Of a stretch of DNA of 64,000 nt, positions 8,944-63,083 are shown piece after piece. Source of the stretch: Planctomycetota bacterium. Its GTDB lineage: Bacteria; Planctomycetota; Phycisphaerae; UBA1845. The notes under the pieces were generated by a model. It was not told where the DNA came from. It did no database searches and saw only the letters and a program-made list of their open reading frames with translations. The stretch covers positions 10,794 through 74,793 of the forward strand of contig JAUWWQ010000003.1 of assembly GCA_030616775.1 (NCBI GenBank), given 5' to 3'. Made by a program: the position numbers and the translations under genes. Positions within the stretch are counted from its first letter, which is position 1, and each line of letters starts with the position of its first letter.

Positions 8944-9478
8944 GCCGTGCAGCTATCGCCTCTGCGATCGCACGCGGTGTGCTGTGGCCTGTGTCGATCA
9001 CCAGGTCGGCGGCTCGTTCATAGAGCGGTGAGCGCTCAGCCAGCAGATGCTCGACTTCCTCCGGGCCGGCCCGGTCGGTCAGCGGCGGCCGATAACCTTT
9101 GCTCGCCTCGTCAGACGCGATCCGCTGCCAGAGCACCTCAGCCGGTGCGGTCAGCCACACCAGCGTCGCCACCTGCCTCAGCATCCGGACGTTATTCTCG
9201 TCCACGATAGCACCGCCTCCGACGGCGATCACAGACGGTGCGTTCGTTGCGGCATATTTGACGGCCTCACGCTCGCGGCTGCGAAAGCCGGTCTCACCTT
9301 CCTCTGCAAAGATGGTTGCAATCGACTTGCCTGCCTGCTCGACGATGAATCCGTCGGTGTCGATGCACTCACCGCCAAGAAGGTCGGCAAGCTCGCGGCC
9401 CACCGCCGACTTGCCGCATCCGCGAAGGCCGATCAGGGCAATTGTTGGTTTCTCGTGATCCGGACCGGGTGCCGTCAT
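8930..9478 (-). CDS. aroK: Shikimate kinase
   Basis: Walker A (GLRGCGKSAVG) and the DTD motif. Its start overlaps the stop of the upstream aroD-aroE fusion by 4 nt. Confidence 0.9.
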   Translation of the reverse strand: MTAPGPDHEKPTIALIGLRGCGKSAVGRELADLLGGECIDTDGFIVEQAGKSIATIFAEEGETGFRSREREAVKYAATNAPSVIAVGGGAIVDENNVRMLRQVATLVWLTAPAEVLWQRIASDEASKGYRPPLTDRAGPEEVEHLLAERSPLYERAADLVIDTGHSTPRAIAEAIAARLNRL

Positions 9479-11034: not shown

Positions 11035-11323
11035 CCGGGACTCCACACTTGTGGACCTGAAGGGGCATAGTTCCGATGAACTATATCTCAAACCGGCCGG
11101 CCTATACAACTGGGCGTCAAAAGGTTGATTTCTACTTGTGCCGCTCCAGAGAAAGCCCCAGCGGTTTTGACTGCCCGCCCCGCCGCTCCTGTTGACGATC
11201 GTGTCGGGTCGCTGGACCGAGAATCCCTTCTCGGTCCTCTGGCAGATGCCGAGAAAGGATTCTCGGCACAGCGTAATGCCGGGAGGATACCCATGGCCGT
11301 AACCTGCGAGACCGAATGACGCC

Positions 11324-12193
11324 ATGACCAGGCTGTTGGTGCTTAACAAGCTGCGGTGGTATCTGCGGCTGCCGATCAAGTGGGTGATCTTCGCGCTGAC
11401 CGTACTGGCGGTGTGCTTTCCGTACCCCCGTCTGCTGATTCGACACGTTCAGCACTGGCGCGACCCCAACGCGCTGATCGAACCGGACGCGCCGGCCATC
11501 CAGCCGCTTGTGGAAGAGCTTGGACAACAGCTCAGTAACGACCTTGCCCCACACGAAGTCCTGAAACGCGTCGAGCGATACGTCTACAACAAGATCGAAT
11601 ACGAGTGGGATTGGAACACCTGGGGAACGGCTGACTATCTGCCGACCGTGACCGAAGCCATCGAGATGGGCAAGGAGGATTGCGACGGGCAGGCGGTGGT
11701 GGCGGCTTCGCTTCTGCGCCGCTTCGGTTTCCAGGTTCAGCTTGTCACCGACTTTGCACATATGTGGGTCAAGACCGACCGGGGCGAGACCATGGGACCA
11801 GGCAAGAAGAAGGCAATTGTCGCAACGGACCGCGGACTCCGGTTTCAGCTCAGCGGGCTGAAGGAGTTGCCGAAGGCGTTCGCCCACGGCACCGCGGTGT
11901 TTCCACTCGTGCGCGAGGCAATCATTCTAGGCATGCTATGGCTCCTACTGTTGCGTCCCAAAGGGGACATCGTTTTGAGCCTGGTAGGGCTGGCGTGTTT
12001 CACTGGTGCCCTTATTTGCCTGAGAAACGGTGGCCGGGATTACTACCATCCGATCCTGTGGATGCAGCGGGTGGGAATGCTTGCCATTGTCGCGGGGTTT
12101 TTCGTGCTTCTCGTCGGTGCGAGGCGCCATGCAGCGGCCGCTGGAGGTACTTCGGCGCACAGCCCGCCCGATCCCACTTCTGAAAAATCGTAG
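11324..12193 (+). CDS. Transglutaminase-like cysteine-protease-fold membrane protein
   Basis: A GKEDCDGQAVVAASLLR (Cys) ... FAHMWV (His) core, with TM segments at both ends. Confidence 0.6.
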   Translation: MTRLLVLNKLRWYLRLPIKWVIFALTVLAVCFPYPRLLIRHVQHWRDPNALIEPDAPAIQPLVEELGQQLSNDLAPHEVLKRVERYVYNKIEYEWDWNTWGTADYLPTVTEAIEMGKEDCDGQAVVAASLLRRFGFQVQLVTDFAHMWVKTDRGETMGPGKKKAIVATDRGLRFQLSGLKELPKAFAHGTAVFPLVREAIILGMLWLLLLRPKGDIVLSLVGLACFTGALICLRNGGRDYYHPILWMQRVGMLAIVAGFFVLLVGARRHAAAAGGTSAHSPPDPTSEKS

Positions 12194-14977: not shown

Positions 14978-15363
14978 GGCTGACAGCCTCTGAGTGGTTC
15001 AACTGTTTCAAGACCCGGACACGGTGGCGAGAGCGACACAGCCCTCTGGTCTGAGGGTCGAACCACCTCGCACACGCCGCGATGGTACGTTGCGCCACTG
15101 AAACGGTCAACCAGCCAAGTACTCCCCAGATGACGGCTCCCGTGTGCTCACGCTTGACGGGACATCCTGGCCGGCCCTATTATTCCTATAGGGAAGCTAG
15201 TGTGCGCCCCCGCGCGAAGCTGTTGCGCGGCTCGGTTGGCAACAGGACTGTGACTTTCCGGTGAGGCGGGCTGACTCCACAGCCCGGTAGATCGACGTCA
15301 CCGAGACGGCGTGATTTCCGAGATCCACGAAAACACCTGACCTGGTTTCATGGAGCATACCCT

Positions 15364-18300
15364 ATGCGTGGTGCGGTGCGTCTGAAGGTCGGCCTTGGCG
15401 TTCCACTGGTAGTGGCGGGCGTCATGTGGATGGCTGGAGGTCTTGCATCCTGCGGGACCGCCCCTACTCCGTTTGTGGTCCAAGGGCCCGGGCAGTTCGG
15501 TAACGACCCCCCGACGCTAACGATTCTAGAGCCCGCCAGCAACATCACCCGCGGACAGGGCGACCCATTCTTGATCCGTTGGACCGACACGGATCGTGAC
15601 GACAACGCTCAGATCAGCTACTTTCTGCTGAGCACCACGTCGAATGAGCGCATCAGGCTGGTCGAAGGGATCGACGAAAACGACAGAACCGGGCCCGACT
15701 CGTTTACCGTCAGCACGACGCCGATCCTACCGGGATCGTATAACGTGCTCGGTACGATTTACGATGGCGTGAACCCGCTTGTTGAACAGTTTGCCATCGT
15801 TGCCGGGGCGGCGCTGCAACAGCGGGTGGTGGTCACGATCGTCGGACCTGGAGAAGGGCCCCAGACCGTACCGCCGATCATCACAGTCACCGAGCCGACG
15901 TTCAATCTGAGCGTAACCCAGGATGACGAGCTGACGGTGGCGGTCCAGCCCACCCCGCTACCTCCGGACCCCAACAACCCGATCCCATACGACCCCGACA
16001 GCGATGTCACGTTGTACATCCTGTTAGACCTTGACCAAGACCCGAACAATGATGATCCGGCCAATCCCGATGAGTCCGACATTATTGTGCTCCGGGAGAC
16101 GTTGGTTCCAACCGGGGCTTCCGACCCTTACGTCTTTCCTATCCTGATTGATCTTGCCGAGGTCCCGCCGCGCCCAGCCGGTGAGCCTTACTACATCCGG
16201 GCGACGGCGGACGACGGTACAAATCCGCGCGTCCACCAATATGCCGTGGGCACGATCAACGTAGTGCGACTGGCTGCAGGCGAGGTCGACCTATTCGACA
16301 TTGGGCGGACAAGATCCGGTGCCAGGTTCTATGGCTTCAACCCCGGCGCCAATCTCGGATCGACCGTTGCGCATGTCAGTGATTTCGACGCGGACGGCGT
16401 CGATGATTTCATCCTGGTTGCCCAGTTCGGCAACCCGCAGAACGTTGGCCCGGTTGGGGAGGCCTACTTGATCTATGGACGGGATGAGATCCGTTTCGGA
16501 GGGGCGATTTCGGTCAACTCGGTGAGCAACACGATTTCCGGGGTGATATTCCAGGCCCCGCCGGTTCGTACCTCTTTGGAGGTGGTCCCGGATCCTTCGG
16601 CGCGAACCGCCGGTATTGTTCACGTTAGCTTCATACAGGATCTGACTGGTGACGGGCGTCCTGATCTGATGTTCGGGCTTCCCCATGTGCATGGAGCGTA
16701 CGACGCGACGGACTACGACCCTGGAGACGACTTCGGCGATACGTCATTCGGCTGCTACCCTGACCCCTACGTCAACAATTTCTCGGATCAAGACCCGAAC
16801 AGGGACTTCGGATGGTACGCGGGGGGCATGGCTGTCATCGTTAATAGTCAAAACCGCGACAACCAGGCACTAATCAACCCTAACCGCCTTGAGTCCACCA
16901 CAGTAGTGCTCGAACTCGTTGGTCACCCGCTGATTGAAGACAACGCCCTGGATGCGGGCGGTCTGAGTTACACTGGTAACATTACTGTACGTGCTGACAA
17001 CGACGCAGTCGAAGACAGAGGCTCAGACCCGCAAGAACCCGGCCGGATTGCCGGGGCCCGCTTTATTGCCGGAGGGTTCGATTACGTGTTTCAGGATGAG
17101 CCCCCGCGTGAGGGACTGTTCGGACAGACTATCGCCCCGCTTGGTGACCTCAACAGCGATGGGCTGGGTGAAATCGTCATCTCGGCACCGCGCAATGAAC
17201 GCTACCTCGCGGATCTGGAAGCGACGCCCGAACTCCCTTTCAGCCCACACTTTTGGTCCACCATGTTTATCGGTAGCATCGTAGTTCTCCCGGGTGGCAA
17301 CTACAATGTCCAGGACTGGAGAGATGACAACAATGACCTCGGAACCTCGAGGGTCCCACCCCTGGACCACCATTTGTTCCCGCCTTTTGGCAGCTGCTCG
17401 AGCACTCCTCCGGAACCGCGCGGCTATGTCATTCCAACGGACTCGTTCGAGATTTTTGCGGAGGATATCGACGACATGCTGGGCGGCGGGAGATCCGCGG
17501 GTGATTTCAACCAGGACGGGCTAGATGACATCCTCTGTGGTGCGCCGCTTAATGATCGTGGCAGTTCGCTGCCTGACACCGGCGCGATGTATGTCATCTA
17601 CGGCCGCACCACATTCGGAGAGGTCCAGCTTGACAGGGCCGATGACCCGCTGCTGCGTCCGCCCATGCTGCGCGTTCGCGGGCTGAAGATCGGAGATCAG
17701 ATAGGTTGGCGCGTGACCGCCGGTCTCGACGTCAACGGCGACCGAATCGACGACGTGTTCGTTGCTTCGCCGCGAACCGACTTCGGCGATCTGACAAGAT
17801 TGGCGTGCGGAACGGACATAGACGAGGACGGGAGCATCGACCAGAACGATTTTGTCCTGCGGACGTTCAACAATTGTGAGACCAGCTCCGGCGACCACCT
17901 GTACACCGACGAGGCCTGCAAGGCGTTTGATTACGATAACGACGAGGACATCGACGATGATGACCGGTGTGTCTTTTGCTGCCTCTCGGACGATTGCGAA
18001 CCCGATGATAGTTGCGTGTTCGGAGATGACAGCGGCGATTGTTGCGCCAGCCTTGTGGACAACGGGTTCATCGGGATCATCTTCGGCGGTGTGTTTATCG
18101 ACGGTGACCGCGACATCAGGCAACTGGCCACCAGCGAGTTGCCCGGCAGCATCTTTTTCGGGAGCGGGGTCGGCCATCGCGCGGGAATGGACATCAGCTC
18201 GGCGGGGGACTTCAACCAGGACGGTTTCGGGGACATCCTGATCACCGCGCCGGGAGAGGTCCGGGTGGATAGTGCAGGCCGGGAGCGACTCGGTGTCGTC

Positions 18301-18636
18301 TATCTGATCTTCGGTGGGACCCACCTGATCAACACGACGTGGAATCTAAGCGACGTCGGTTCCGGGGAGTTGCCGGGGATTGTCTTCCTGAGCCCCTATG
18401 TCAAGGGTCGTCCCAATGAAGCAGCCCCACGCGCTGTGGCATATATCGGGGACATCAACAACGATGGCTTTGGGGACATCGCCATTGGCAACCCCCAAGC
18501 GGACTTTATCGATCCGAGCTTCCCGCAGGGGCCGGACGCGCCGGGCAGCGACCCAGCCGCCGGCCGGCGTTCGGATGTCGGCGATGTGTACGTGATCTAC
18601 GGCAACAACTACGGCAGCAACCGGGCATTGCCCTGA
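15364..18636 (+). CDS. Large FG-GAP (integrin-alpha-like) repeat lipoprotein
   Basis: Lipobox LASC after a signal peptide. Multiple FG-GAP/Ca-binding repeats (GDFNQDGLDDIL, DVNGDRIDDVFV, GDFNQDGFGDILI, GDINNDGFGDIAIGNP). Confidence 0.8.
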   Translation: MRGAVRLKVGLGVPLVVAGVMWMAGGLASCGTAPTPFVVQGPGQFGNDPPTLTILEPASNITRGQGDPFLIRWTDTDRDDNAQISYFLLSTTSNERIRLVEGIDENDRTGPDSFTVSTTPILPGSYNVLGTIYDGVNPLVEQFAIVAGAALQQRVVVTIVGPGEGPQTVPPIITVTEPTFNLSVTQDDELTVAVQPTPLPPDPNNPIPYDPDSDVTLYILLDLDQDPNNDDPANPDESDIIVLRETLVPTGASDPYVFPILIDLAEVPPRPAGEPYYIRATADDGTNPRVHQYAVGTINVVRLAAGEVDLFDIGRTRSGARFYGFNPGANLGSTVAHVSDFDADGVDDFILVAQFGNPQNVGPVGEAYLIYGRDEIRFGGAISVNSVSNTISGVIFQAPPVRTSLEVVPDPSARTAGIVHVSFIQDLTGDGRPDLMFGLPHVHGAYDATDYDPGDDFGDTSFGCYPDPYVNNFSDQDPNRDFGWYAGGMAVIVNSQNRDNQALINPNRLESTTVVLELVGHPLIEDNALDAGGLSYTGNITVRADNDAVEDRGSDPQEPGRIAGARFIAGGFDYVFQDEPPREGLFGQTIAPLGDLNSDGLGEIVISAPRNERYLADLEATPELPFSPHFWSTMFIGSIVVLPGGNYNVQDWRDDNNDLGTSRVPPLDHHLFPPFGSCSSTPPEPRGYVIPTDSFEIFAEDIDDMLGGGRSAGDFNQDGLDDILCGAPLNDRGSSLPDTGAMYVIYGRTTFGEVQLDRADDPLLRPPMLRVRGLKIGDQIGWRVTAGLDVNGDRIDDVFVASPRTDFGDLTRLACGTDIDEDGSIDQNDFVLRTFNNCETSSGDHLYTDEACKAFDYDNDEDIDDDDRCVFCCLSDDCEPDDSCVFGDDSGDCCASLVDNGFIGIIFGGVFIDGDRDIRQLATSELPGSIFFGSGVGHRAGMDISSAGDFNQDGFGDILITAPGEVRVDSAGRERLGVVYLIFGGTHLINTTWNLSDVGSGELPGIVFLSPYVKGRPNEAAPRAVAYIGDINNDGFGDIAIGNPQADFIDPSFPQGPDAPGSDPAAGRRSDVGDVYVIYGNNYGSNRALP

Positions 18637-32301: not shown

Positions 32302-33466
32302 GCATAGCGTCTTCGACGACCGCGGCGTGGAAACGCTCGAGGTTGGGGGGTTCGATTCGGGCCTTGCTGCGGAGCTGGGCGACTTGCTCGACGACGAGGC
32401 GGTTGTAGGACTCGATGAGGACACGCTCTTTGAGCCGTGGTTGAAGGGTTTGAAAGTCCGGCTCGTGGCCGGGGTCGATCTGGTCGCAACGCACCAGAAA
32501 GAATCCATCATCCGTTTCGATGATGTTGCTGACCGAACCTGCGTCCAAGCTGTGTAACGCCTCAACAGCAGGTTCAAATCGTTCGCGTACACTTCCTTTA
32601 GTAACCCAGCCCCAGGATCCGCCTTCATCGGCATGAAGCCCGTCCGAGTAGCGGCGAGCGACCTCGGCGAAGTCGACGCCGCTATCCAGTTCGGCCCGGG
32701 CGGTTTGAATGCGTGAGCGGGCCTGCATACGGGCGCTCTCGAACTGATCACGTGTCGGAGAGCCGGCATCTTTTCCAGCGCGATCGCGCAGGCGGACGTC
32801 AATCAACGACATGCGCCGTCGGGCCGGCCGGCGGAATGAATCGGCATTGGCCTCGAAGGCGGCGAGCAGCTCGGCCCGGGTCGGCTCGGCCACCTTCGGC
32901 TTGACCTCCTGTTCAAGGTAACTGGTAATGATGATCTCACGGCGGACCTTTTCGCGCGCGTCTTTAAGTGTGCGTCCCTGTGACTCCAACTGTCTCTCGT
33001 AGCGCCGTGGAACACCGTCGTGCTCGGTGGTTATTATCTTGCGGATCTGTGCGTCAACGTACGTGTCGACTTTGGCGCTCATCTCAGGTGAGAATCGCAG
33101 AGAGGCCTGCTGATACAAAAGCATTTCCGCAATCTTGTCAGTGATCAACCGGGCCGCTCGACGGTCGAGATAGGTTCGATAATCCTCGGGAGCAAGAGTC
33201 TTGGCTTTGGTCGACAGCTCGTCATGGAGGCCCAGCCAAAGCTCATGTGCCTCGACGGTCTCGGCATTGACGGTAAGGCGACTGACAGCGAAAGTCCCCG
33301 CGGCGTCGTGATAAGCGGGTGAAGGATTCGAGCGTGACTGCGTAGGCGGCGATGTAGTAATGCGATCGGGGTTGGATTGCACCGGGACCATGCACGCTGT
33401 GTTCCAGATGCATAATGCACCTGTGGCCAAGGCGCCCCGCACAATCCGCCGAAGAGAGTCTTTCAC
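32285..33466 (-). CDS. SurA/PpiD-like periplasmic chaperone with a parvulin-type PPIase domain
   Basis: Signal-like N-terminus. Parvulin region FAEVARRYSDG...GGSWGWVTKG...FFLVRC. Confidence 0.75.
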   Translation of the reverse strand: MKDSLRRIVRGALATGALCIWNTACMVPVQSNPDRITTSPPTQSRSNPSPAYHDAAGTFAVSRLTVNAETVEAHELWLGLHDELSTKAKTLAPEDYRTYLDRRAARLITDKIAEMLLYQQASLRFSPEMSAKVDTYVDAQIRKIITTEHDGVPRRYERQLESQGRTLKDAREKVRREIIITSYLEQEVKPKVAEPTRAELLAAFEANADSFRRPARRRMSLIDVRLRDRAGKDAGSPTRDQFESARMQARSRIQTARAELDSGVDFAEVARRYSDGLHADEGGSWGWVTKGSVRERFEPAVEALHSLDAGSVSNIIETDDGFFLVRCDQIDPGHEPDFQTLQPRLKERVLIESYNRLVVEQVAQLRSKARIEPPNLERFHAAVVEDAMHRIAN

Positions 33467-36400
33467 GTCACTGCCTCCACACGTGATCCGGCTCTGACAA
33501 ACATTTGCCGTAATATCGGTAACAGGGTCACCGGTTCAAGACAGTCGGGCGGGAGCCGCAGGTGAATCGTCTTGGGGTCCGGCATACGCACGCTTCCCGG
33601 GGCGTCGGTGAAAAGGGGCTCAGCCGTGGGCAAATCGTCAATCAGGAAGACCACGTCCGGCGGCCTCAGGCTGATCGACTGTATCCCGAAGCGACGCCCG
33701 TACACGCGGATTTCCGCCAGCTCCAGCAGCCGTTGCACCTCCTTGGGGAACGGGCCGAACGCGTCTATCAGGTCCCGCTCGAGCTGGGCCAGATCGGCTT
33801 CGGTCCGACAGGCCACGATCCGGCGGTATATTTCGATCCGTGATCGATCCGCGGTGATATAGTGTGGCGGGATATGGGCGGCCACGTCAAGGTCCACGTG
33901 AACCGGCGGAGGCGTCGGATCGGGTTCACTCTTCAAGCGACAGACGGTCTGTTGGAGTAGGCGGCAGTACATCTCATAGCCAACCGCTGCGATGTGCCCG
34001 CTCTGCTCCCGCCCCAGGAGGTTGCCCGCCCCACGGATTTCCAGATCGCGCATGGCAATCCGGAATCCGGCGCCCAGTTCGCTAAACTCCTCGATCGTCT
34101 TTAGCCGTTTAGCGGCTTTGCTGGTGGGGGGATGATCGGGCGAGAGCAGCAAATAGCAATAGGCTCGATGGCTCGATCGTCCCACACGACCACGGAGCTG
34201 GTGGAGATCGGCCAGTCCGAACCGCTCAGCGCGGTGGATAAAGATCGTGTTGACGGTGGGAATGTCGATACCGCTTTCGATGATAGTGGTGGTCACGAGC
34301 ACGTCGGCCTTGCGGCGCACGAACTGGTGCATGACCGATTCCAGCTCGCCGTCTTTCATTTGGCCGTGGGCGTAGACCACCTTTGCTTCCGGTACGATCT
34401 GACGGATTTTGTCGGTCATGCCCGCGATGGAGCGGACGAAGTTGTGTACGAAGTAGACCTGCCCGTCCCGGTTCAGCTCACGGAGGATGGCGTTGCGGAT
34501 CAGATCCCGATTGAACGGACCCACCTGTGTGGCGATGGCCCGGCGGTCCACGGGCGGTGTCTGCAGCGAGCTGATGTCGCGGACGCCCATAAGTGACATG
34601 TGCAACGTTCGGGGGATCGGTGTGGCGGTCAGCGTCAGTACGTCAACGGTTTCGCGCATGGCTTTCAGTCGCTCCTTGTGCTCCACGCCGAAACGCTGCT
34701 CTTCGTCGATAACCACCAGGCCCAGGTTGGCAATGGATACGTCCTTGCTAAGAAGCCGATGGGTGCCGATGACGATGTCCACCTGCCCCTTCTTGAGCTG
34801 CGCGACAAGCTTCTTTTGCTCGGATGGGCTGCGAAACCGCGACAGGCATCCGACTACGAAGGGGTACTCGGCCATGCGCTCTCGGAACGTGGCGTAATGC
34901 TGCTCGGCCAGCACGGTCGTGGGGACCAGGAGGGCGACCTGCTTCCCATATTCGACAATCTTGAAGGCCGCTCGCATGGCCAGTTCCGTCTTGCCGTAAC
35001 CGACGTCGCCGCAGACCAGGCGATCCATCGGACGCGGTCGCACCAGATCCTCGCGGATATCCTTGGCGACAAGCAACTGATCTTCGGTCTCTTCATAAGG
35101 GAATGCGGCCTCGAACTCGCGCTGCCACTCGGTGTCAGTCGGATAGGGCGTACCGGCCGCCTCATCCCGGATCGCTTGTACGTGGAGGAGCGATTCGGCG
35201 AGCTCCGAGACGGCGTCAGCGACCTGTCGCTTGCTCTTGCTCCAACGTTTGCCGCCGACTTTGGACAGCTCCGGCCGCCGGCCCCCGGCGCCGATGTATT
35301 TTTGCACCAGGTCTATCTGCGAACACGGGACGTAGATCATGGCTTTGTCGGCGAATTCCAGAGCGAGGAATTCTTCCCGCTGACGTGACGTTCCCTTGCG
35401 TATCTTCTTTAGCCCGCGATAGATCGCGATCCCGTGCATCACATGCACGACCAGTTCACCGGGCATAAGATCCAGCCAGGACTCCAGAGGTCGACCGGCA
35501 TGAAGTCGTCGGACGCGCCGTCGCTGCCGATGGCGGTGGAAGATTTCGGAATGCGGGATGACCAGCGTCCCGGTCGCAGTCCACTCGAAACCTCGATGCA
35601 GGACGCCGATGCCGGTGTGAATCGACTCGGCAAGGTCGGGTGCCTGCTCCGAGACCATCTCGATCAGCCGCTGGCGCTCCCCCTCGGCGTCGCAGATCAC
35701 ATGCACCTCATGGTCGCAGGCGACACGGCAGAGCTCCGCGACGGCATCGGTCGCATTACTCTCAAATCGGGACACGGACGTGACACCCATGTCGAACTCG
35801 TCTTCGTCTTTGGCAGTCGCCGATCCGAATGACGACAGATAAAGCTGCGGGAATCGGCCTGTTCGTGCCAGCACCTCGGTCACGTCGTAGATGCGGTCCG
35901 ACGCTCCCAGACGCGCTTGAAGTATTTCGCCCATGGTCTGGATTTCACCCGGCCCATCGAGAATGATCAGGGTGTCAGATGGCAGGTAGGCGGTCAGATC
36001 CGTGACCGCCGCGCTGTCCACCCCTTGATCGCCGGGCAAGGCCACAACGGACAGCGAAGTCAGCGTCTCGATGGAACGCTGAGTGCTGGCATCAAAACGC
36101 CGGATCGATTCAACCTCATCGCCGAAGAACTGAATGCGAACGGGGTCTGTTTCACCCGGCGCGAACAGATCGACAATATCGCCGCGCTGGGCCACATCGC
36201 CGGGCGATTCCACGAGTTCAAGCCGCTGGAAGCCGCGGTTTATGGCCCACGCGACGATCGACTCCGGCGATCGGGCAGCGGGGCAATCCCCGCCTGTGCC
36301 CCTGACAACCTGCAGCGTGTGGTGTCCAAGCGCCTCTGGATCGGGTACGGGCTGCATGAGAGCCTGAATCGGCGCGACAATCAGGGTTGCAGGTGAGCAA

Positions 36401-36759
36401 GCGGTCGGATCTCCGCGCAGGCTAGAGCCTGCGGCTCCCTGAAGACGGCTGCACAGGTGAAGCCGCTCGGCCTCGATCTCACCGCTGGCCGCACCCTCAC
36501 CGGGCAACGTCTCCCAGGCTGGGAACAGCTCGCATGACCGGCCCAGGAAGAGCTCCAGGTCGTCGCGGGCGTCGTCGGCTTGTTCCAGGTGGGCGGTTAT
36601 GTACAGGTGGGTCCGCTTGCGGGCGGCTGCGACCAGAGCGGCCACCATAGGCGCAGACGATCCCCACACGCCCGAAACATGAACCACCCCGGTCGAACCG
36701 GAAAGCCGTTCATTAAGGCGCTTCACCCGAGGATCGGAGGCGATCGATGGGATCACCAT
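33463..36759 (-). CDS. mfd: Transcription-repair coupling factor
   Basis: 1098 aa. UvrB-homology N-terminus, CarD/RID domain, DEAD/H helicase motifs (GDVGYGKTE, VIDEEQRFG), TRG motif and C-terminal D7. Confidence 0.97.
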   Translation of the reverse strand: MVIPSIASDPRVKRLNERLSGSTGVVHVSGVWGSSAPMVAALVAAARKRTHLYITAHLEQADDARDDLELFLGRSCELFPAWETLPGEGAASGEIEAERLHLCSRLQGAAGSSLRGDPTACSPATLIVAPIQALMQPVPDPEALGHHTLQVVRGTGGDCPAARSPESIVAWAINRGFQRLELVESPGDVAQRGDIVDLFAPGETDPVRIQFFGDEVESIRRFDASTQRSIETLTSLSVVALPGDQGVDSAAVTDLTAYLPSDTLIILDGPGEIQTMGEILQARLGASDRIYDVTEVLARTGRFPQLYLSSFGSATAKDEDEFDMGVTSVSRFESNATDAVAELCRVACDHEVHVICDAEGERQRLIEMVSEQAPDLAESIHTGIGVLHRGFEWTATGTLVIPHSEIFHRHRQRRRVRRLHAGRPLESWLDLMPGELVVHVMHGIAIYRGLKKIRKGTSRQREEFLALEFADKAMIYVPCSQIDLVQKYIGAGGRRPELSKVGGKRWSKSKRQVADAVSELAESLLHVQAIRDEAAGTPYPTDTEWQREFEAAFPYEETEDQLLVAKDIREDLVRPRPMDRLVCGDVGYGKTELAMRAAFKIVEYGKQVALLVPTTVLAEQHYATFRERMAEYPFVVGCLSRFRSPSEQKKLVAQLKKGQVDIVIGTHRLLSKDVSIANLGLVVIDEEQRFGVEHKERLKAMRETVDVLTLTATPIPRTLHMSLMGVRDISSLQTPPVDRRAIATQVGPFNRDLIRNAILRELNRDGQVYFVHNFVRSIAGMTDKIRQIVPEAKVVYAHGQMKDGELESVMHQFVRRKADVLVTTTIIESGIDIPTVNTIFIHRAERFGLADLHQLRGRVGRSSHRAYCYLLLSPDHPPTSKAAKRLKTIEEFSELGAGFRIAMRDLEIRGAGNLLGREQSGHIAAVGYEMYCRLLQQTVCRLKSEPDPTPPPVHVDLDVAAHIPPHYITADRSRIEIYRRIVACRTEADLAQLERDLIDAFGPFPKEVQRLLELAEIRVYGRRFGIQSISLRPPDVVFLIDDLPTAEPLFTDAPGSVRMPDPKTIHLRLPPDCLEPVTLLPILRQMFVRAGSRVEAVT
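36411..36437 (-). repeat. 27-nt palindromic element copy inside the mfd coding sequence, in frame (AAGSSLRG)
   Basis: CTCCGCGCAGGCTAGAGCCTGCGGCTC matches the intergenic copy at 60061-60087 at 24/27 positions. Confidence 0.65.
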
Positions 36760-56034: not shown

Positions 56035-57597
56035 ATGGAGGTCACACTCGACGGGAACTCGCTATCGATCGAACAGATTCATTCAGTGGCTCGCCGTGGG
56101 GCCAAGGTGTTGGTGTCCCCGGAAGCCCGGGCGAATGTCCAACGCTCCCGTGACGTTGTCGAGCGATGCGTAGCGGCTGGGACCGCTGTCTATGGCGTTA
56201 CCACCGGCATCGGGGAGTTCGCCCGCATCCGCATCTCGCTCGAGCAATGCGCCGAATTGCAGCGACGAATCGTTTACAGCCACTCAGCGGGCACGGGTGA
56301 TCCGCAGCCCAAAGATGTGGTTCGGGCGGCCATGCTGTGCCGGGCCAACACTCTGGCTAAGGGTTACTCCGGTGTGCGTCTTTGTTTGTTGGACACCGTG
56401 ATCGACATGATCAACAAGGGCGTGGTCCCCTACATCAACGAAAAGGGTTCGTTGGGGACCAGTGGTGACCTCTCGCCGCTTTCGCAATTCGCCGAGGTGG
56501 CCATCGGCGAGGGGCGGGCCTATTACAGGGGCGAACTGATGCCGGGCGGGGAGGCGATGAAGCGGGCCGGCATCAAGCCCACCGATCTGACCTATAAGGA
56601 GGGCCTCGGCCTGATCAACGGCTCGCAGATGATGACCGGCGGGGCGGCACTTTTGATCTATGATGCCGAGCGCATCCTCAAGAACGCCATGATTGCCAGC
56701 GCTATGACACTGGATGCCCTTCGCGCCGTCGCCCGGGCGTTCGATCCGCTGGTTCATCGCGTTCGACCTTTCCCAGGGCAGAATGCGGTAGCCGGCAATC
56801 TGCTACGCCTGATCGCCAACAGCGAGGTGATGGCCCATCGAACGGGGCGCGTTCAGGACGGCTATAGCATTCGTTGCACGCCGCAGATCATGGGTGCATC
56901 GCTTGATACTCTGGAACACGTCCGCAGGATCATCAATATCGAGGTCAACGCCGCAGCGGATAATCCCCTCTTTTTTGGGGAAGAGGACGAATACTTCGCC
57001 GCGGGCAACTTCCACGGGCAGGGGATCGGGATGGTCGTCGACTTTCTATGCATCGCCATGTCGGAGGTGGCCAACCTTTCCGAGCGGCACACCAACCGGT
57101 TACTAAACCCGGTGCTCTCCGGCTTGCCCGACTTTCTTGTGGAAGGTAAAGGGCTCAACTCCGGTCTGATGGTGTCGCAATACACGGCTGCGGCGCTGGT
57201 CTCGGAGAATAAGGTGCTGTCTCATCCCGCCTCGGTTGACTCGATCAGCGTATCGGCTGATCAGGAGGATCATGTCAGCATGGGGCCGATCGCGGTACGC
57301 AAGTGCACCGAGATCCTCAAGAACGTCCGGACGGTGTTGGCGATCGAGATGATGTCGGCCGCGCAGGCGTTCGAGTTCCATGAGGGTCGTCGGCCCGGCA
57401 AGGGAACCGCCACTGCGTACGACCTGATCCGCTCGAAGGTACCCAAGCTGGTGGACGACCGGGTGCTCTACCCGGACATCGAGGACATCCGTCAAATGGT
57501 CGAGGATTGCAGCATCTTAGATGCGGTGGAGAAGGAGATCGGGCCGCTCAACCTGGCCCGCGACATGGAACTACCCCGGCCGAACGTCCCGGCGTAG
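56035..57597 (+). CDS. hutH: Histidine ammonia-lyase family enzyme (MIO-dependent aromatic amino acid lyase/aminomutase family)
   Basis: 520 aa. MIO region GSLGTSGDLSPLS, SH pair in VYSHSAG, and QEDHVSMG. The symbol is tentative because the MIO triad is TSG and no other hut genes are adjacent. Confidence 0.8.
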   Translation: MEVTLDGNSLSIEQIHSVARRGAKVLVSPEARANVQRSRDVVERCVAAGTAVYGVTTGIGEFARIRISLEQCAELQRRIVYSHSAGTGDPQPKDVVRAAMLCRANTLAKGYSGVRLCLLDTVIDMINKGVVPYINEKGSLGTSGDLSPLSQFAEVAIGEGRAYYRGELMPGGEAMKRAGIKPTDLTYKEGLGLINGSQMMTGGAALLIYDAERILKNAMIASAMTLDALRAVARAFDPLVHRVRPFPGQNAVAGNLLRLIANSEVMAHRTGRVQDGYSIRCTPQIMGASLDTLEHVRRIINIEVNAAADNPLFFGEEDEYFAAGNFHGQGIGMVVDFLCIAMSEVANLSERHTNRLLNPVLSGLPDFLVEGKGLNSGLMVSQYTAAALVSENKVLSHPASVDSISVSADQEDHVSMGPIAVRKCTEILKNVRTVLAIEMMSAAQAFEFHEGRRPGKGTATAYDLIRSKVPKLVDDRVLYPDIEDIRQMVEDCSILDAVEKEIGPLNLARDMELPRPNVPA

Positions 57598-57730
57598 GGG
57601 CGGCAGTAGGGCAGAGTCTGGCGCAGCCAGGCTGTGGGCGCGCTTGCCGTCGACAAGTTTCACCAAACCTGGGTGCCATGTTATTGTCGTGGACGTGCCG
57701 GCAATTACCCAGGCGATTTGGACCTTCAAG

Positions 57731-58945
57731 GTGAAAGCAATCGCAGTTGTCGGTGCTGGGACGATGGGGGCGGGGGTTGCACAACTGGCGGCTACGCATG
57801 GCTGCATCGTCTACCTGAATGATATCGATGGCGAGGTGATTCAGCGCGGGATCGACGGCATCGTCGCTCGCCTGGAGCGCTCGGTCGACAAGGGTAGGCT
57901 GAAGCGCCGCGATCGGGATGCCATTTTGGGCCGCATCAAGCCCGCGGACGCAATTTGCGACCTGAGCGACGTCGATCTAGCGGTCGAGGCGGTTGTCGAG
58001 GACCTTGCTGTCAAACAGGAGGTGTTCGCCACGCTCGAAGAGGGCCTTTCGGCGTCGGCTGTCTTGGCCACTAACACCTCGTCCCTATCCATCACCCGGA
58101 TTGCGGAAGCAGTCAAGAACCCATCCCGCGTGGTTGGCATGCATTTTTTCAATCCCGCACCGGTCATGCCGCTTGTAGAGGTCATCGCCGGGCGTGCCAG
58201 TGACGAAGCATCCGTCGATTTCGCGTGCAAAGTGGCGGAAGGTTGGGGTAAGGTCCCTGTGCGGGCAAAGGACACGCCGGGGTTCATCGTGAACCGTGTG
58301 GCCCGCGGCTTCTATCTGGAGGCGCTTCGACTCCGCAGCGAGGGTGTGGCCGGTGTTGATGAAATCGACGCGGTGATGCGCACGCACGGCAAATTCAAGA
58401 TGGGGCCGTTCGAGCTGATGGACCTGATCGGTCTCGACGTGAACCTGGCGGTCAGCACATCGATCTGGGAGCAAACGGGCAAGCCTGCTCGGTTCAGGGT
58501 GCACGAGATGCAACAGCAGCTCGTCGACCAGGGTCATCTGGGCCGCAAGTCGGGTCGAGGTTTTTACCTGCATGACGGCGAGACGCCCCTGCCGGCCGTT
58601 GCAGTTGATCGGCGCAGCTACGAGCTTTCACCGCTGCTCTCCGATGCCATGTTGGCGTTTTCGGCCAGGGCCGGGGCCGCACAGACATCCAGCACCGAGC
58701 GGTACGTTTTCTGCCGGATTCTCAGTGCGGTCATCAACGAAGCCGGTTTGCTCTTTTCGGACAACGTAGCCACTCGCAAGGATATCGACATCGCCATGGT
58801 CAAGGGCGCCAATTACCCGAAGGGTCCGCTGGCCTGGGCGGATGACATCGGCCATCGCACGGTGCGCGGCCTGCTCAAAGGCTTGAACAGCACCGTGTCC
58901 GACGGGCGTTATGAGCCGGCCCCGCTGTTTGCCGACGCACAGTGA
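57731..58945 (+). CDS. 3-hydroxyacyl-CoA / 3-hydroxybutyryl-CoA dehydrogenase (PaaH-like, extended C-terminus)
   Basis: Rossmann motif IAVVGAGTMGAGVA and NTSSLSI, with duplicated C-terminal helical domains. The GTG start at 57731 is a guess; the ORF is open from 57521. Confidence 0.8.
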   Translation: MKAIAVVGAGTMGAGVAQLAATHGCIVYLNDIDGEVIQRGIDGIVARLERSVDKGRLKRRDRDAILGRIKPADAICDLSDVDLAVEAVVEDLAVKQEVFATLEEGLSASAVLATNTSSLSITRIAEAVKNPSRVVGMHFFNPAPVMPLVEVIAGRASDEASVDFACKVAEGWGKVPVRAKDTPGFIVNRVARGFYLEALRLRSEGVAGVDEIDAVMRTHGKFKMGPFELMDLIGLDVNLAVSTSIWEQTGKPARFRVHEMQQQLVDQGHLGRKSGRGFYLHDGETPLPAVAVDRRSYELSPLLSDAMLAFSARAGAAQTSSTERYVFCRILSAVINEAGLLFSDNVATRKDIDIAMVKGANYPKGPLAWADDIGHRTVRGLLKGLNSTVSDGRYEPAPLFADAQ

Positions 58946-58953
58946 CTCCCCCG

Positions 58954-58980
58954 AGCCGCGGGCTTCAGCCCGCGCGGACA
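58954..58980 (+). repeat. 27-nt palindromic element, reference copy GAGCCGCGGGCTTCAGCCCGCGCGGAC
   Basis: 7-bp stem CGCGGGC/GCCCGCG with loop TTCA. It starts 9 nt after the dehydrogenase stop. Confidence 0.85.
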
Positions 58981-59111: not shown

Positions 59112-59846
59112 ATGCCGCAGAATGAAACGGCGCCGGAGCATCCTGACGGCGACACGACCAGCATCTTACGCAGAACCGTTCAGTCCGTTGTGGCTGGGAT
59201 GTCAGGGCTCGCGTCATCAGACCGAAAGGAGGTCATCCTCTCGGTCGGACGTGTGTTCCAAGCGATGGTCGCGGGTAAGTTCTTGTCCCAGCTGGAGAGA
59301 GAGTGGGAGGACCTCCGCAGGAAGGGGCGGATCAAGGACGACTATGATAGCACGTCGCAGAGCAGGGCTTGTCTAAGCGACTTGCTTCGCTATTTGGACT
59401 CGGAGGTTCCCGACGAAAAGCGCCTTGATCTACTGAAGAAGATCTTTCTCGTTGCGGCGACAGAAGAGGTCTCTGATCGAGAAAGCCATCTCCCACAACA
59501 ATTCATGCAGATCTGCCGAAACCTCTCCACCGGGGAGATCCTCGTCCTGGTGACCACGTACGCGGTTGCGGACCAGAAGGACTACAAGTCTAGTGCACCC
59601 AACGAAGCCCAGACGTGGTTGCGTCTGATCGGCGACAGGTCTGGTCTGAAGCACGAGGAACTCGTGGAGCTTCACGAACAATCACTCATGGAGAAACATC
59701 TGCTCACGCGGCGCTTCTACGGCGACCGCAGCGGTGTATCGCTCGGTAAGCATTTTCGCCTGAGCAATCTTGGATACGAGCTGTGCAGGTTTCTCGCCCA
59801 TTACGACAAGGAAACGGAGTCGGCCGCCCAGCCATCGGATGGGTGA
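59112..59846 (+). CDS. Abi-alpha (DUF4393)-like protein, possible abortive-infection/defence gene
   Basis: The helical pattern LLRYLDSEVPDEKRLDLLKKIFLVAATEE...QQFMQICRNLSTGEILVL resembles, from memory, the Abi_alpha core (leDdeLqelwAnLLasa...iLkqLsp.eA.iL). Not verifiable without a search. Confidence 0.4.
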   Translation: MPQNETAPEHPDGDTTSILRRTVQSVVAGMSGLASSDRKEVILSVGRVFQAMVAGKFLSQLEREWEDLRRKGRIKDDYDSTSQSRACLSDLLRYLDSEVPDEKRLDLLKKIFLVAATEEVSDRESHLPQQFMQICRNLSTGEILVLVTTYAVADQKDYKSSAPNEAQTWLRLIGDRSGLKHEELVELHEQSLMEKHLLTRRFYGDRSGVSLGKHFRLSNLGYELCRFLAHYDKETESAAQPSDG

Positions 59847-60060: not shown

Positions 60061-60087
60061 GTCCGCGCAGGCTGAAGCCTGCGGCTC
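60061..60087 (-). repeat. 27-nt palindromic element, inverted copy with a compensatory stem change (GTCCGCGCAGGCTGAAGCCTGCGGCTC)
   Basis: Relative to 58954-58980, one G-C pair becomes A-T through changes on both arms. Confidence 0.85.
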
Positions 60088-60215
60088 AGGGCGGCGCGTA
60101 GTGGTGAATTATAGCTGGACTCGCCATAACCCCCCGTGAGCGTCGCAGACGGTTGAAGACTCACAGGTCCGCCTTGACGGCGGACCCATGCCACCCGACG
60201 CGTGAAGAACGACCT

Positions 60216-62336
60216 ATGAACATCCGATCCGCCCGGGCAAACTGTGTTGAGCTTGTGACGCTTGGTGCTATTCTGCTGCTCTTTGCGGTGGTTTCTGTAG
60301 TCGGCATCACGTGGGGTTTGCCGAGTCGGACAATCGACAAGTATCTCTTCGGCGATGATCCGCCGTGGCCGGGGGAGAAGATCTATCGGCTGGCCGGGGC
60401 CGCGGAGAAGTTCTCGCCCGATCGCGGGGCCGATGTCGATGCCGATCCGCTGGATAGATCAGGGGACGACCCCGTCCTGCTGACTGAGACCGAAGAGGAC
60501 ATTGCCAAGATCTATCTTCGCTATCGGCTGTACACCTATCAGCCTGACGAGATGATCACGATGATGGCCCTGGCGGGGATGAAGCCACGCAGGCTTGAAC
60601 TCGACCCCAGGCTCTATCAGTACGGCGGCCTGTTCATTTACCCGGTGGGGGCGCTGATCGGGGCGTGTGGTTCTGTCGGCTTGATCGACGTGCGCAGCGA
60701 CATCGTCTACTACCTCGACAACCCGGATGAGTTCGGCAAGTTCTACATGGTCGCCCGGGCATACTCGGCCGTTTGGGGACTCGTTGGTGTGGTGATCGTC
60801 TTTGCCATCGCCAGACGATTGAGCGGCCTGCGAGCCGGGCTCCTTGCGGGGCTGTTGTTTACGCTCATGCCGGTTGTCGTCTGCATGGCCCACGAGGGCA
60901 AGCCGCACCTGCCCGGGGCGGTCCTTATGCTGACGGCCGTGCTGTTCGCAATGCGGTATCTCGATTATGCCACCTCGCGCAACTGGTGGCTGATGTGCAT
61001 CTGTTGCGGGGCGGCGCTGGGGATGGTGTTGTCGTCCTGGCCGATCTTTGTGTTGATTCCGTTGATCGCATGGCTGGAAACACGAGGCACGAAGGGCGGC
61101 ACCCCGCGCGGAGTCACAAACGCTGAGCAATCGCCACTCCCGCACGTTAGTCCGCGTGGGCTCCCGATAGATCGGGATTCCATTCCGCCCGCGGCTCGGA
61201 ACGGAAACGCAGGCGTCCTTGGCGTTGGGATCAAGCGAACCGTCGGTGGGGTCGTCATCGGGGCGCTCGTGTACTCTATCACGAACCCGTACATCTTGAT
61301 TAACGCGTTCGTCAATCGCGAGGTGCTGAGCAGCAATTTCGGCAACTCGCTGGCCATGTACGAGATTTCCCGGATCGGCGAGGGATTTATTCGCGTGCTC
61401 GAATTGACCGTCGAGGGTGCGACACTGCCGATAGTGGCTCTCGGGGCAGTTGCACTTTTCGTTTCGTGTCTCCGAATGGGTGGCGCGGGTAAACGTAGCT
61501 TGGACGTGGTTGGTGGTTACGCAAACCGGGGCGAGCAGGTTGACGATCGGCATACCGGCGCTTCGCTTGGGCTCGGCACCCGGCATGACACCCGGTATGA
61601 CACCCGAAAGAAAAACGCGTTGATCATTCCACTGGTGGTTCCTGCGGCCGTGCTCTTCCTGCAGTTCGTGCTGATCGGTGCCGGCAAGCCGGCCGAATAT
61701 GGCCGGTTCGGCGTCTTCACCAACACAGCTCTGGCGATCGGCACCGCCTGCCTCCTGGCCCACCGCTGGACGAAACTGCGCGAGATCGTCAACTGGGTCC
61801 CGGCGATATTCGTTCTAATCTGGGTTGCGGGCTTTGGGGCCGCCTACCTGCGCAACTTCTACATCGATTCCACGGGGCAAAACTCCCGGACCTTGCTGGC
61901 GGAAGAGACCACTTGGTTGGAGCTTCGTGATGCCGTGGATTCCAATCTGACGGATTCTGCTGGACTAGCGCCCATCACGGTTCAAAGCGAGCCCGCGCCG
62001 TACTGCTTCCCTCCCCTAGATTTCCGGAAGACCGTTGTGCTTCTCGTGAAGCAACCCGAACCGCCGGCAACCGCGACTTGCAGGCGCCTGTTCCTCCGAA
62101 CGCTTGATCGGCGGACCGGGGCAAGGAGCGGCACATGCCAGGATGATCCGTTCGCCCGGTGCATAAGCAGGTTTGAACGTCCCGAAGCAGAGGCATGGTC
62201 GGACCCAATCGACACACCGATAAGTTGGGCCAATAAGCCTTTCGAGGTCTTGAGCTACGTCACAGTCTACTACGGTAACGAATCCCCCTCACGAATGCAG
62301 GAACCTCCAGAACGCGGGCGGACGCAGCAGCCCTGA
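60216..62336 (+). CDS. Large polytopic membrane protein, GT-C glycosyltransferase-like (ArnT/PMT-like), with low-complexity insertions
   Basis: Many TM segments and an early DE-containing loop (YQPDEMI). Start taken at the ATG at 60216. Confidence 0.45.
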   Translation: MNIRSARANCVELVTLGAILLLFAVVSVVGITWGLPSRTIDKYLFGDDPPWPGEKIYRLAGAAEKFSPDRGADVDADPLDRSGDDPVLLTETEEDIAKIYLRYRLYTYQPDEMITMMALAGMKPRRLELDPRLYQYGGLFIYPVGALIGACGSVGLIDVRSDIVYYLDNPDEFGKFYMVARAYSAVWGLVGVVIVFAIARRLSGLRAGLLAGLLFTLMPVVVCMAHEGKPHLPGAVLMLTAVLFAMRYLDYATSRNWWLMCICCGAALGMVLSSWPIFVLIPLIAWLETRGTKGGTPRGVTNAEQSPLPHVSPRGLPIDRDSIPPAARNGNAGVLGVGIKRTVGGVVIGALVYSITNPYILINAFVNREVLSSNFGNSLAMYEISRIGEGFIRVLELTVEGATLPIVALGAVALFVSCLRMGGAGKRSLDVVGGYANRGEQVDDRHTGASLGLGTRHDTRYDTRKKNALIIPLVVPAAVLFLQFVLIGAGKPAEYGRFGVFTNTALAIGTACLLAHRWTKLREIVNWVPAIFVLIWVAGFGAAYLRNFYIDSTGQNSRTLLAEETTWLELRDAVDSNLTDSAGLAPITVQSEPAPYCFPPLDFRKTVVLLVKQPEPPATATCRRLFLRTLDRRTGARSGTCQDDPFARCISRFERPEAEAWSDPIDTPISWANKPFEVLSYVTVYYGNESPSRMQEPPERGRTQQP
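61150..61197 (-). repeat. Split/expanded copy of the palindromic element inside the glycosyltransferase-like ORF, in frame (SPRGL...PAAR)
   Basis: GTCCGCGTGGGC, then a 25-nt insert containing its own hairpin CCCGAT-AG-ATCGGG, then GCCCGCGGCTC. Confidence 0.55.
61577..61612 (+). repeat. 12-bp tandem repeat (CACCCGGCATGA / CACCCGGTATGA / CACCCGAAAGAA) in coding sequence
   Basis: Read directly. It encodes TRHD-TRYD-TRKK. Confidence 0.7.
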
Positions 62337-62861: not shown

Positions 62862-62887
62862 GGCGCAGACTTGAAGTCTGCGCGGAC
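62862..62887 (+). repeat. Palindromic element variant (GGCGCAGACTTGAAGTCTGCGCGGAC) with two compensatory stem pairs
   Basis: It shares the CGC...GCGCGGAC frame with the reference copy. The stem GGGC/GCCC is replaced by AGAC/GTCT. Confidence 0.7.
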
Positions 62888-62923
62888 TGCCAATTGCTAT
62901 TGACGCTGATTCGGAGAACGCGA

Positions 62924-62950
62924 CGCCAGGCGGGCTTTAAGCCCGCGGCT
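62924..62950 (-). repeat. Palindromic element variant in inverted orientation (CGCCAGGCGGGCTTTAAGCCCGCGGCTT)
   Basis: It forms an inverted pair with 62862-62887, 36 nt away. Confidence 0.65.
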
Positions 62951-63083
62951 TAAGGGTCTGCGGTCAATCGCAACGAACAAATCGGTGGTTTGAGTAACAG
63001 ACGGTTTACACCAACGCTCGTGTGTGAATAGAATAACAGACGGACCAGAGTGCCGATAAAGGGGGTTACTTGCAGGCGTCGAA

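Follow-up and report, generated by a model that had tools for sequence, protein, structure and literature searches.

To our knowledge, REP and REPIN sequences and their RAYT enzymes have been studied almost entirely in Gammaproteobacteria. A different kind of dispersed palindrome, the Rickettsia palindromic element (RPE), is 100-150 bp long, and we know of no transposase for it. The E. coli enzyme TnpA-REP requires a hairpin together with a 5' GTAG foot and cuts at CT (Messing et al. 2012, PMC3479197), and it is the only one for which cleavage and rejoining of REP single-stranded DNA have been shown (PMC3479197). For the GTAG/CGTC superfamilies, Di Nocera et al. (2013, PMC3733652) reported REPs in frame within genes for tRNA synthetases and DNA repair. 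The class 3 HuH-Y1 proteins are described, in the portion of the survey drawn on here, as a small group, mainly of Planctomycetes, in which the N-terminus is extended and conserved (Quentin et al. 2018, BMC Genomics 19:475, PMC6006769). The same portion, a brief description that covers few genomes, gives them a Y...Q signature and a 5' foot, CnGA, placed on atypical, weak and mismatched structures. Their motifs begin CnGAGCCGCG, as in Legionella (CCGAGCCGCGACCGTAAGGGAGCGGA), Planctomyces limnophilus (ACGAGCCGGAAGCG...) and Solibacter (CAGAGCCGCGACCGT...), and the accompanying table has motif starts CCGAGCCGCG, CAGAGCCGCG and ACGAGCCGG (PMC6006769).

The element considered here was recognised in a 64-kb stretch of DNA, called the window below (64,000 nucleotides in all). 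Its core, CCGCGCGGGCTGAAGCCCGCGGCTC, combines a stem of 7 bp with a tetraloop and a GGCTC tag that is conserved and reads GAGCC on the opposite strand. With the tag placed last the repeat reads (GT)CCG-CGCGGGC-TGAA-GCCCGCG-GCTC, and with the tag first it reads nGAGC-CGCGGGC-TTCA-GCCCGCG-CGG. It is 25-27 nt long, with a stem of 7 bp and a loop of 4 nt, and folds as single-stranded DNA at -11 to -13 kcal/mol; five of its six reading frames are open. A degenerate 26-mer, TCCGCGCRGGCTNNAGCCYGCGGCTC, with up to 3 mismatches allowed, finds 5 copies in the window against 0.01 expected from shuffles. A covariance model (R1), trained on 70 copies from the window and other genomes, brings the total to 9 copies in 64 kb (Table 1). 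The 26-mer and the model between them recovered all eight copies claimed in the original prediction, and the ninth is the decayed copy at 15202, which R1 detects with filters off. In the long-loop copy, the loop has been swapped for TCCCGATAGATCGGGATTCCATTCC, a 25-nt nested hairpin. Rfam at gathering thresholds gave 0 matches across the whole window. A tenth copy lies just past the window end, where the Logan contig L210, which is 100% identical to the last 2.8 kb of the window and reaches 4.8 kb beyond, stops inside the copy.

Table 1. Copies of the repeat in the 64-kb window, with the search that found them.
Position	Strand	Copy	Context	Bits	Search
914..939	-	REP copy, one G.T wobble in stem	6 nt 3' of stop, MmgE/PrpD-family gene (18..908)	45.6	26-mer
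5902..5927	+	Consensus REP copy	In frame in gatB (5628..7157, - strand); encodes EPRASARAD, aa 411-419		26-mer
15202..15242	+	Decayed REP copy, flanks retained, stem broken	Divergent intergenic region ahead of gene 15364..18636	22.6-22.7	
36412..36437	+	REP copy, A-T variant of stem pair 4	In frame in mfd/TRCF (33463..36759, - strand); aa 108-116		26-mer
58953..58978	-	Consensus REP copy	8 nt 3' of stop, 3-hydroxyacyl-CoA dehydrogenase gene (57521..58945)	55.3	26-mer
60062..60087	+	REP copy, A-T variant	Between co-directional genes 59112..59846 and 60153..62336	50.7	26-mer
61150..61197	+	Long-loop REP variant, stem base and GGCTC tag kept	In frame in PMT_2-type ORF 60153..62336	23.2	R1, default filters, at 61144-61206(+)
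62862..62887	-	Left half of REPIN-like doublet; stem GCAGAC/GTCTGC, loop +1 base, tag degraded		36.3	R1, filters off, at 62851-62893(-)
62926..62952	+	Right half of doublet; consensus stem, loop TTTAA, inner flank diverged		33.6	R1, filters off, at 62918-62960(+)

The hairpin is under structural constraint. In an alignment of 103 hits (A3), 98% of the stem cells are paired and 4 of the 7 pairs have changed on both sides, and the observed covariation values were reached by 0 of 500 shuffles. Since A3 was fitted to the covariance model, and many of its copies were fetched with a pattern that fixes much of the stem, the count was redone on 62 copies from outside that pattern. Here 397 of 434 stem cells are Watson-Crick, against 353 +/- 3.8 when the arms are shuffled, and 25 of the 30 cells changed on both sides are again Watson-Crick. 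The covariation first seen in the window therefore holds as more copies are aligned. Stem variants include GCAGGC/GCCTGC, GCATGC/GCATGC, GCGAAC/GTTCGC, GCGGAC/GTCCGC and GCGGCC/GGCCGC, together with the window's own GCAGAC/GTCTGC; the last of these does consist of two compensatory pairs with GCGCGGAC retained, as had been claimed for the copy at 62862.

Searching a species-representative genome collection with a foot-less core pattern gives at least 118 eight-kb loci that carry the element, from at least about 60 MAG assemblies (a count of accession prefixes). The loci listed are nearly all labelled Phycisphaerae, Phycisphaerales or Planctomycetota, and the scan beyond the window that had been proposed thus finds the element to be widespread. 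Across the loci listed and the window, R1 makes 194 hits in 833 kb, a density biased upward by the choice of loci, each of which was selected because it holds a copy. In these loci the 25-nt core hardly varies, nor does the GGCTC tag. Conserved single-stranded flanks had been predicted and a conserved flank is real, but across genomes it is the 3' GGCTC and not the 5' GT of GTCCGCGC, which is seen in the window and is not conserved. Among the matches listed, GGCTAC, a GTAG foot on the opposite strand, occurs only in the non-Phycisphaerae relatives L020, L046, L113 and L116, which are a few Gemmataceae and MAGs labelled deltaproteobacteria.

Copies also occur in close pairs. There are 43 pairs less than 300 nt apart in the loci listed and the window, with 33 in the order -+, 6 ++, 3 -- and 1 +-. 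As 33 of the 43 are in the -,+ order, the GAGCC...GGCTC feet face outward, and the layout of the doublets is that of a REPIN or BIME. Two length classes of spacer are seen, 2-8 nt and 35-44 nt, without conservation of the spacer sequence. The inverted pair in the window, which had been called BIME-like, has the same layout with outward-facing tags; its spacing is 36 nt by the boundaries originally given and 40 nt by the core boundaries used here, which places it in the longer class. The two halves of this doublet have diverged and so each folds alone, while a tight doublet at locus L063 forms one long hairpin (-32 kcal/mol, z = -6.2). Another locus, L059, holds four tandem copies with a 42-nt period.

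The enzyme that moves the element, for which the original prediction could offer no candidate, is probably identifiable from sequences in related genomes. At locus L102, from a Phycisphaerales MAG, an ORF at 4657..5187 encodes a protein of 176 aa with the motif THVHLV and a conserved Tyr. The ORF is bracketed by the element with feet outward, a REP on the - strand standing 13 nt before the ATG and one on the + strand 30 nt after the stop. Its homologues in P0241 (72% identity), P0243 (65%) and P0244 (57%) have the same bracketing, with R1 scores of 37-52 bits. In P0241, the called gene start has been extended by the element. The bracketed genes in L102, L203-205, L206 and L207 represent four distinct homologues with 57-100% identity, and the association with a transposase that was to be looked for is thus present as an HUH-Y1 (RAYT-like) gene between two outward-facing copies in four genomes other than that of the window. 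In a more distant homologue (46% identity), the bracketing hairpins share the AGAGCC foot, the TTCA loop and the GCGGAC flank and have the stem GGGCCC instead, a pattern that looks like co-evolution.

Assignment of this clade to the HUH-Y1 enzymes comes from several comparisons. As a single sequence, the L102 protein matches Pfam Y1_Tnp weakly (E = 0.0019, below the curated threshold), and proteins of its type fall below both NCBIfam thresholds, IS200 and RAYT, with 18 bits in the RAYT model against a cut-off of 80. Homologues of L102 in databases are named RayT by JGI, many of them with PF01797. A profile of the clade matches the IS200/IS605 TnpA 2f4f (E = 4e-10), and also 2xm3 and 2a6m, as well as the E. 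coli TnpA-REP 4er8 (E = 0.008). Within the clade His97, His99 and Tyr157 are invariant, and an N-terminal LLTWTTYGTWLPGDERGFV block is conserved. The four closest REP-flanked enzymes have YVxxH (YxxxH) and homologues at 35-43% identity have YVxxQ (YxxxQ). The window has no candidate L102-type gene, nor does it have the neighbours of the candidate seen elsewhere (ABC-2 permease, rpoN, Aminotran_4 and mnhG); the window's own organism presumably carries such an enzyme at another place in its genome.

Canonical RAYTs give one further clue to how repeat and enzyme may be matched. A search for RAYT homologues by tblastn, phmmer and a two-sequence HMM across the at least 118 loci listed and the window returned only L046, from a Desulfobaccales-labelled MAG. 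Weak matches of ORFs in L022 and L080 to RAYT were false, one being ScpB and the other having no Pfam match. The L046 protein is a class-2 RAYT (NCBIfam, 82 bits) with 13% identity to the L102-type protein, and its gene has the same hairpin on either side, in the -,+ order and with a GTAG foot. Since the same hairpin here has a GTAG foot and goes with another enzyme, it seems to be the foot and not the hairpin that matches enzyme to repeat. The homologues of this RAYT are of Desulfobaccales type and did not lead to Phycisphaerae.

We take the element to be a REP/REPIN family of Phycisphaerae that is copied by an HUH-Y1 enzyme of the RAYT/TnpA-REP kind, and put the probability of this reading at about 0.85. 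The family exists both as single copies and as inverted REPIN doublets with feet outward, and would be copied, at present or in the recent past, by a single-stranded DNA HUH-tyrosine (Y1) enzyme, for which the clade of L102:4657-5187 is the best candidate. This enzyme would bind the folded hairpin and foot on single-stranded DNA and would cut and rejoin nearby. Copies would then persist where they do little harm, that is, just 3' of genes, between convergent genes, and in frame within surface loops of large proteins. We infer the catalysis; no insertion polymorphism was seen between close strains, and we infer mobility only from copy number, from the presence of both filled and empty sites in the gatB of distant species, and by analogy.

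A large share of the copies is found inside genes. It had been overlooked that three of the eight copies first reported in the window are in frame inside protein-coding genes, which Pfam identifies as gatB, mfd and a glycosyltransferase ORF with a PMT_2 domain (Table 1). Mfd structures from mycobacteria can be aligned to either side of the mfd copy, with a gap where the residues are REP-coded. The long-loop variant recurs at L101:4385-4447 inside an unrelated membrane-protein ORF; the PMT and Mfd proteins of the window have no homologues in the loci, and the L101 copy is therefore an independent case. By crude gene calls, 46 of 188 copies, about a quarter, lie inside ORFs, and several of the hosts are confirmed by Pfam domains on both sides: IleRS (twice), ValRS and AlaRS (both with doublets) and UvrA (twice). 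The tandem array of L059 is in frame in a gene for an FG-GAP/ASPIC protein. All five stop-free frames are used, giving the peptides EPRASARA, SRGLQPAR, AAGFSPRG, PRGLKPAA and SARAEARGS. The in-frame copies are predicted to be translated in these proteins.

The gatB copy can be followed across species. The window GatB is closest to Phycisphaerae MAG proteins. Typical GatB homologues (about 495 aa) have 0 residues between 'MLxRxE' and 'SPxxLAEELGL', while about ten homologues have an insert there, EPRASARAD, EPRASACAD, EPQASACA or EPHALACAD, and these peptides are direct translations of the repeat and its compensatory variants. The GatB of P0006 has a decayed repeat-derived peptide. In the AlphaFold2 model of the window GatB (mean pLDDT 85), the only segment below 50 is residues 413-422, predicted as a coil between two helices that coincides with the REP-coded peptide. 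When the empty site of P0007 is compared at the DNA level with the filled sites of the window, P0003, P0004, P0005, P0008 and P0042, neither a target-site duplication nor any terminal inverted repeat other than the hairpin is seen. The insert-bearing GatBs form three separate clades in a neighbour-joining tree. Their history may be that of an old insertion with losses, of repeated insertion at a hot spot, or of conversion from other copies. In P0003, a copy of another REP family stands immediately beside the element, and in P0004 there is one at a second site; because these two genes also hold the other family, gatB loops have been colonised repeatedly.

The same gene provides an argument for the main alternative, in which the element is a site in cis selected by the host and used by a host factor, with the link to a transposase secondary. 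Candidates for such a factor would be a REP-binding protein, a nucleoid or replication factor, or the reader of an uptake-signal-like self marker. In E. coli, gyrase, IHF and Pol I are all REP-binding proteins. Third codon positions of gatB have 37-58% identity between the window and five other insert-bearing genes, and the remaining 18 nt of the insert keep 10 of 18, yet the 27-nt core has 26, 26, 25 and 23 nt identical to the window in P0003, P0004, P0005 and P0008 (85-96%). Changes in the core are compensatory, with one stem pair being G-C in the window, A-T in P0008 and P0042, and the intermediate G.T in P0004. The near-identity of the core, across lineages that are saturated at synonymous sites, exceeds what is predicted for a purely neutral selfish repeat, and the near-invariance of the 25-nt core over at least about 60 species-level MAGs also favours a host site. 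However, no host factor was identified, there is no strand or orientation bias (72 v 64 after gene 3' ends, and mixed in the window), and decayed copies are present (15202, the pair 62862/62924, and the peptide of P0006). The conservation could equally come from repeated re-insertion at a hot spot or from gene conversion by other copies. The insert-bearing GatBs fall in three clades. We regard a host-selected site as unlikely, and it is an explanation that can coexist with REP identity. Somewhat more credible, if still doubtful, is the broader suggestion that the hairpin is actively maintained and not just tolerated inside essential genes, either by a host-level function in DNA or mRNA or by a Y1 enzyme that continually homogenises the copies or re-installs them at fixed sites.

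It could also be supposed that the element is moved by the RAYT of the window itself (2332..2940), despite the different hairpins that adjoin it. That protein is a bona fide RAYT, with 90.2 bits in the NCBIfam model REP_Tyr_transpos against a cut-off of 80. Its own hairpins, GTGCC-ACTGCTC-TGTG-AGCAGT-GCC, are arranged in a vaguely similar manner, with a GTGCC foot and a stem of 7-8 bp, and the gatB of P0003 holds both REP types side by side. In the window, however, these hairpins are found only beside that RAYT. For its relatives, 80 metagenome loci were fetched and the flanks of roughly 46 examined, and these have mostly GTGTGCCA- or GGTGGCA-footed hairpins whose stems differ between loci, while R1 has only 7 clear hits in the 80 loci, few and scattered. 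The same foot type is tabulated for the subclass 2.2 RAYTs of Planctomyces brasiliensis. The relatives thus go with a different REP and another enzyme clade is bracketed by the element, and the window RAYT was rejected as its enzyme. That RAYT appears from these flanks to serve a different REP family, as the original prediction had guessed when it called the element unrelated to the REP beside the RAYT, and we consider it very improbable that it moves the element.

Placement of the copies bears on a role at the RNA level, whether as an intrinsic terminator, a stabiliser of mRNA 3' ends or a small structured RNA. Intergenic copies, by crude gene calls over the loci listed and the window, lie between co-directional genes in 74 cases, convergent genes in 31 and divergent genes in 8, a placement that is REP-like. 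A stop codon is 40 nt or less away in 46 of 136 gene-end contexts, the copies at 914 and 58953 being examples in the window. These positions and the stability of the hairpin, which was calculated as DNA, would suit an RNA function, as would the stabilisation of mRNA by E. coli REPs that is noted in the portion of the survey used here (PMC6006769). On the other side, no T-run follows the hairpin and 0 copies in 57000-64000 were called terminator-like, copies are oriented at random with respect to the upstream gene, about a quarter of the copies are in ORFs, and Rfam is blank. G.T and A.C single changes are equally frequent on either strand. The strand bias relative to transcription that the original prediction had proposed to look for was thus not seen, and of its wording, a structured DNA or RNA element, what stands is a dispersed hairpin family with stem covariation. 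An RNA element is not favoured because copies occur in both orientations with respect to transcription and none in 57000-64000 looks like an intrinsic terminator, and we give this explanation slightly less weight even than the window RAYT. A MITE moved by a DDE transposase, or the remnant of a CRISPR-like or tandem array, can be set aside as hardly credible, as the resemblance of the doublets to short inverted-repeat elements and the four tandem copies of L059 have to be weighed against a 27-nt unit far below MITE size, the lack of target-site duplication or extra terminal inverted repeats at gatB, doublet spacers that are not conserved, the lack of any associated DDE transposase, and an L059 array that is without spacers and in frame in its gene.

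A REP/REPIN family of this kind matters for several reasons. It is an abundant example from Phycisphaerae with a strong hairpin, a non-GTAG foot, defined doublets and a candidate enzyme bracketed in four genomes, and these features together make the recognition rule (foot plus stem) directly testable. Among the papers searched, none links Phycisphaera to REP or RAYT. For annotation, EPRASARA, PRGLKPAA, SARAEARGS, AAGFSPRG and SRGLQPAR are recurrent peptide footprints in the proteins of these MAGs, and the element breaks short-read assemblies, as the end of contig L210 in a copy illustrates. If the copies are indeed maintained, a partnership of REP and enzyme would shape GatB, Mfd, aminoacyl-tRNA synthetases and UvrA across a whole bacterial class. 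If the nucleotide conservation of intragenic copies reflects selection, it would bear on whether hosts have in REPs a parasite or a partner, which is still an open question.

Compared with the REP/BIME of E. coli and the REPIN-RAYT system of Pseudomonas (PMC3479197; Bertels and Rainey 2011, PMC3116915), the element is likewise a short palindrome, imperfect and with a conserved foot on the 5' side of its stem. All of them occur in large numbers at dispersed sites and as inverted doublets, and in all of them the gene for the enzyme, an HUH-Y1 protein related to IS200/IS605 TnpA, stands between REPs of its own family (a REPtron). The element differs in its host phylum, in an enzyme that fails the curated RAYT model, in a much higher intragenic share, and in its foot, which is GAGC and not GT[AG]G, so that it lies outside the canonical GTAG definition of class 2 RAYT repeats. 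Like the intragenic REPs already described (PMC3733652) and the RPEs of Rickettsia, it forms in-frame palindromes in genes that stay functional. Its tag is not that of the described intragenic REPs, and unlike them and the RPEs it occupies the same gatB site in three GatB clades, with a second REP family adjoining. The GTAG REP of L046 and of the Gemmataceae L020 and L113 has an identical hairpin and loop (GCAGGC-TNAA-GCCTGC within CCGCGC...GCGG) and, in L046, the same -,+ bracketing of a RAYT, but the foot is GTAGCC (GGCTAC) where the element has GAGCC (GGCTC), and the RAYT is canonical.

The closest known system is class 3, which the element and its candidate enzyme resemble by the published description and motifs. 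The start of the element, nGAGCCGCGGGC, shares its first 8-10 bases with the published motifs. Both belong mainly to Planctomycetes and have hairpins on the two sides of the gene, with many further copies dispersed elsewhere, and in both the N-terminus of the enzyme is extended and conserved; the more distant homologues of the L102 clade have YxxxQ. Against the portion of the class 3 account used here, the stem of the element, 7 bp of perfectly paired GC under a tetraloop, is neither weak nor mismatched, the C of CnGA is found in about a third of its copies (5/7 window copies), and the four closest enzymes are YxxxH where class 3 is described with Y...Q. Phycisphaerae examples, doublet geometry and intragenic copies are not mentioned in that portion. 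Taken together, this is a known kind of system, represented by a new and well-defined family in an under-studied class, with an intragenic part that is unusually large and conserved.

The GAGCC-footed element also exists in altered forms. In the long-loop variant, the loop is replaced by TCCCGAYARRTCGGGATTYCATTCC, a hairpin in its own right, while the base of the stem and the tag are retained, and this form is found in two unrelated genomes, that of the window and that of L101, where we judge from the sequence that the host ORF is CtaA/COX15-like. Copies at two other loci (L013 and L050) carry loop insertions unlike TCCCGAYARRTCGGGATTYCATTCC. At L059:2437-2604, the element is repeated four times in direct tandem with a period of 42 nt, in frame within a gene for an FG-GAP/ASPIC protein, and is translated as a 14-residue tandem peptide repeat, SARAKARGSxGDGx. 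Within the window, GTCCGCACAGCGGAC at 976-990 and the 914-939 copy are 37 nt apart, the usual doublet spacing, and both ends of GTCCGCACAGCGGAC resemble those of the element; it may be an internally deleted partner of that copy.

In addition to the GAGCC-type copies, gatB hosts in-frame copies of the window's other REP family, with a GTGTGGCA / GGGTGGCA foot. A single GatB homologue, P0081, has a 32-residue insert, IKPNADNQAIAEGRTHQSLAPLGRGQGEGLPP, in its catalytic domain (alignment A1 columns 161-192), possibly left behind by a further family of repeats. Gene callers can be misled by REP copies in these MAGs, as at L203:838-888, where the called start of the gene for P0241, a homologue of the candidate HUH-Y1 enzyme, extends through the upstream REP and yields a spurious N-terminus, MCVSDNEPRASARAVS.

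Coordinates of variant and related REP features
Feature	Position	Context
Long-loop variant of element	window 61150-61197	in frame, loop of PMT_2-type membrane-protein ORF
Long-loop variant of element	L101:4385-4447	in frame, loop of membrane-protein ORF
Other-family REP in gatB (P0003)	L199:5222-5330	directly adjoins GAGCC-type copy; peptide VCGTGFQPVEHH
Other-family REP in gatB (P0004)	L211	second site, separate loop; SPEARPEQSEGRAQAAGLGRYAV
GTAG-footed hairpin	L046:7283-7835	
GTAG-footed hairpin	L020:6956-7031	
GTAG-footed hairpin	L113:693-774	
GTAG-footed hairpin	L116:6431-6472	
RAYT	window 2332..2940	NCBIfam REP_Tyr_transpos, 90 bits
GTGCC-footed hairpins	window 2247, 2288, 2989	bracket the RAYT

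At 11210-11273 the window also has a strong inverted repeat, unrelated to the REP, in which 25-nt arms with 88% complementarity enclose a 14-nt loop. It sits close to where two divergent ORFs, 9475..11379(-) and 11324..12193(+), overlap at their starts.

Gemmataceae and MAGs with a deltaproteobacteria label share the element's hairpin but bear a GTAG foot (GGCTAC) on it, and at L046 such hairpins bracket a canonical class-2 RAYT; the shared hairpin may stem from common ancestry, transfer or convergence. Separate from the GAGCC element, the window holds a second REP-RAYT unit at 2247-3011, and no further sites for its GTGCC-footed hairpins were found in the 64 kb beyond those around the RAYT. 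Among relatives of this RAYT (80 fetched from metagenomes, flanks examined for approximately 46), hairpins with a GTGTGCCA/GGTGGCA foot are present in most flanks examined, with stems that vary from locus to locus. The same foot is given for Planctomyces brasiliensis in Table S1 of Quentin 2018 (PMC6006769).
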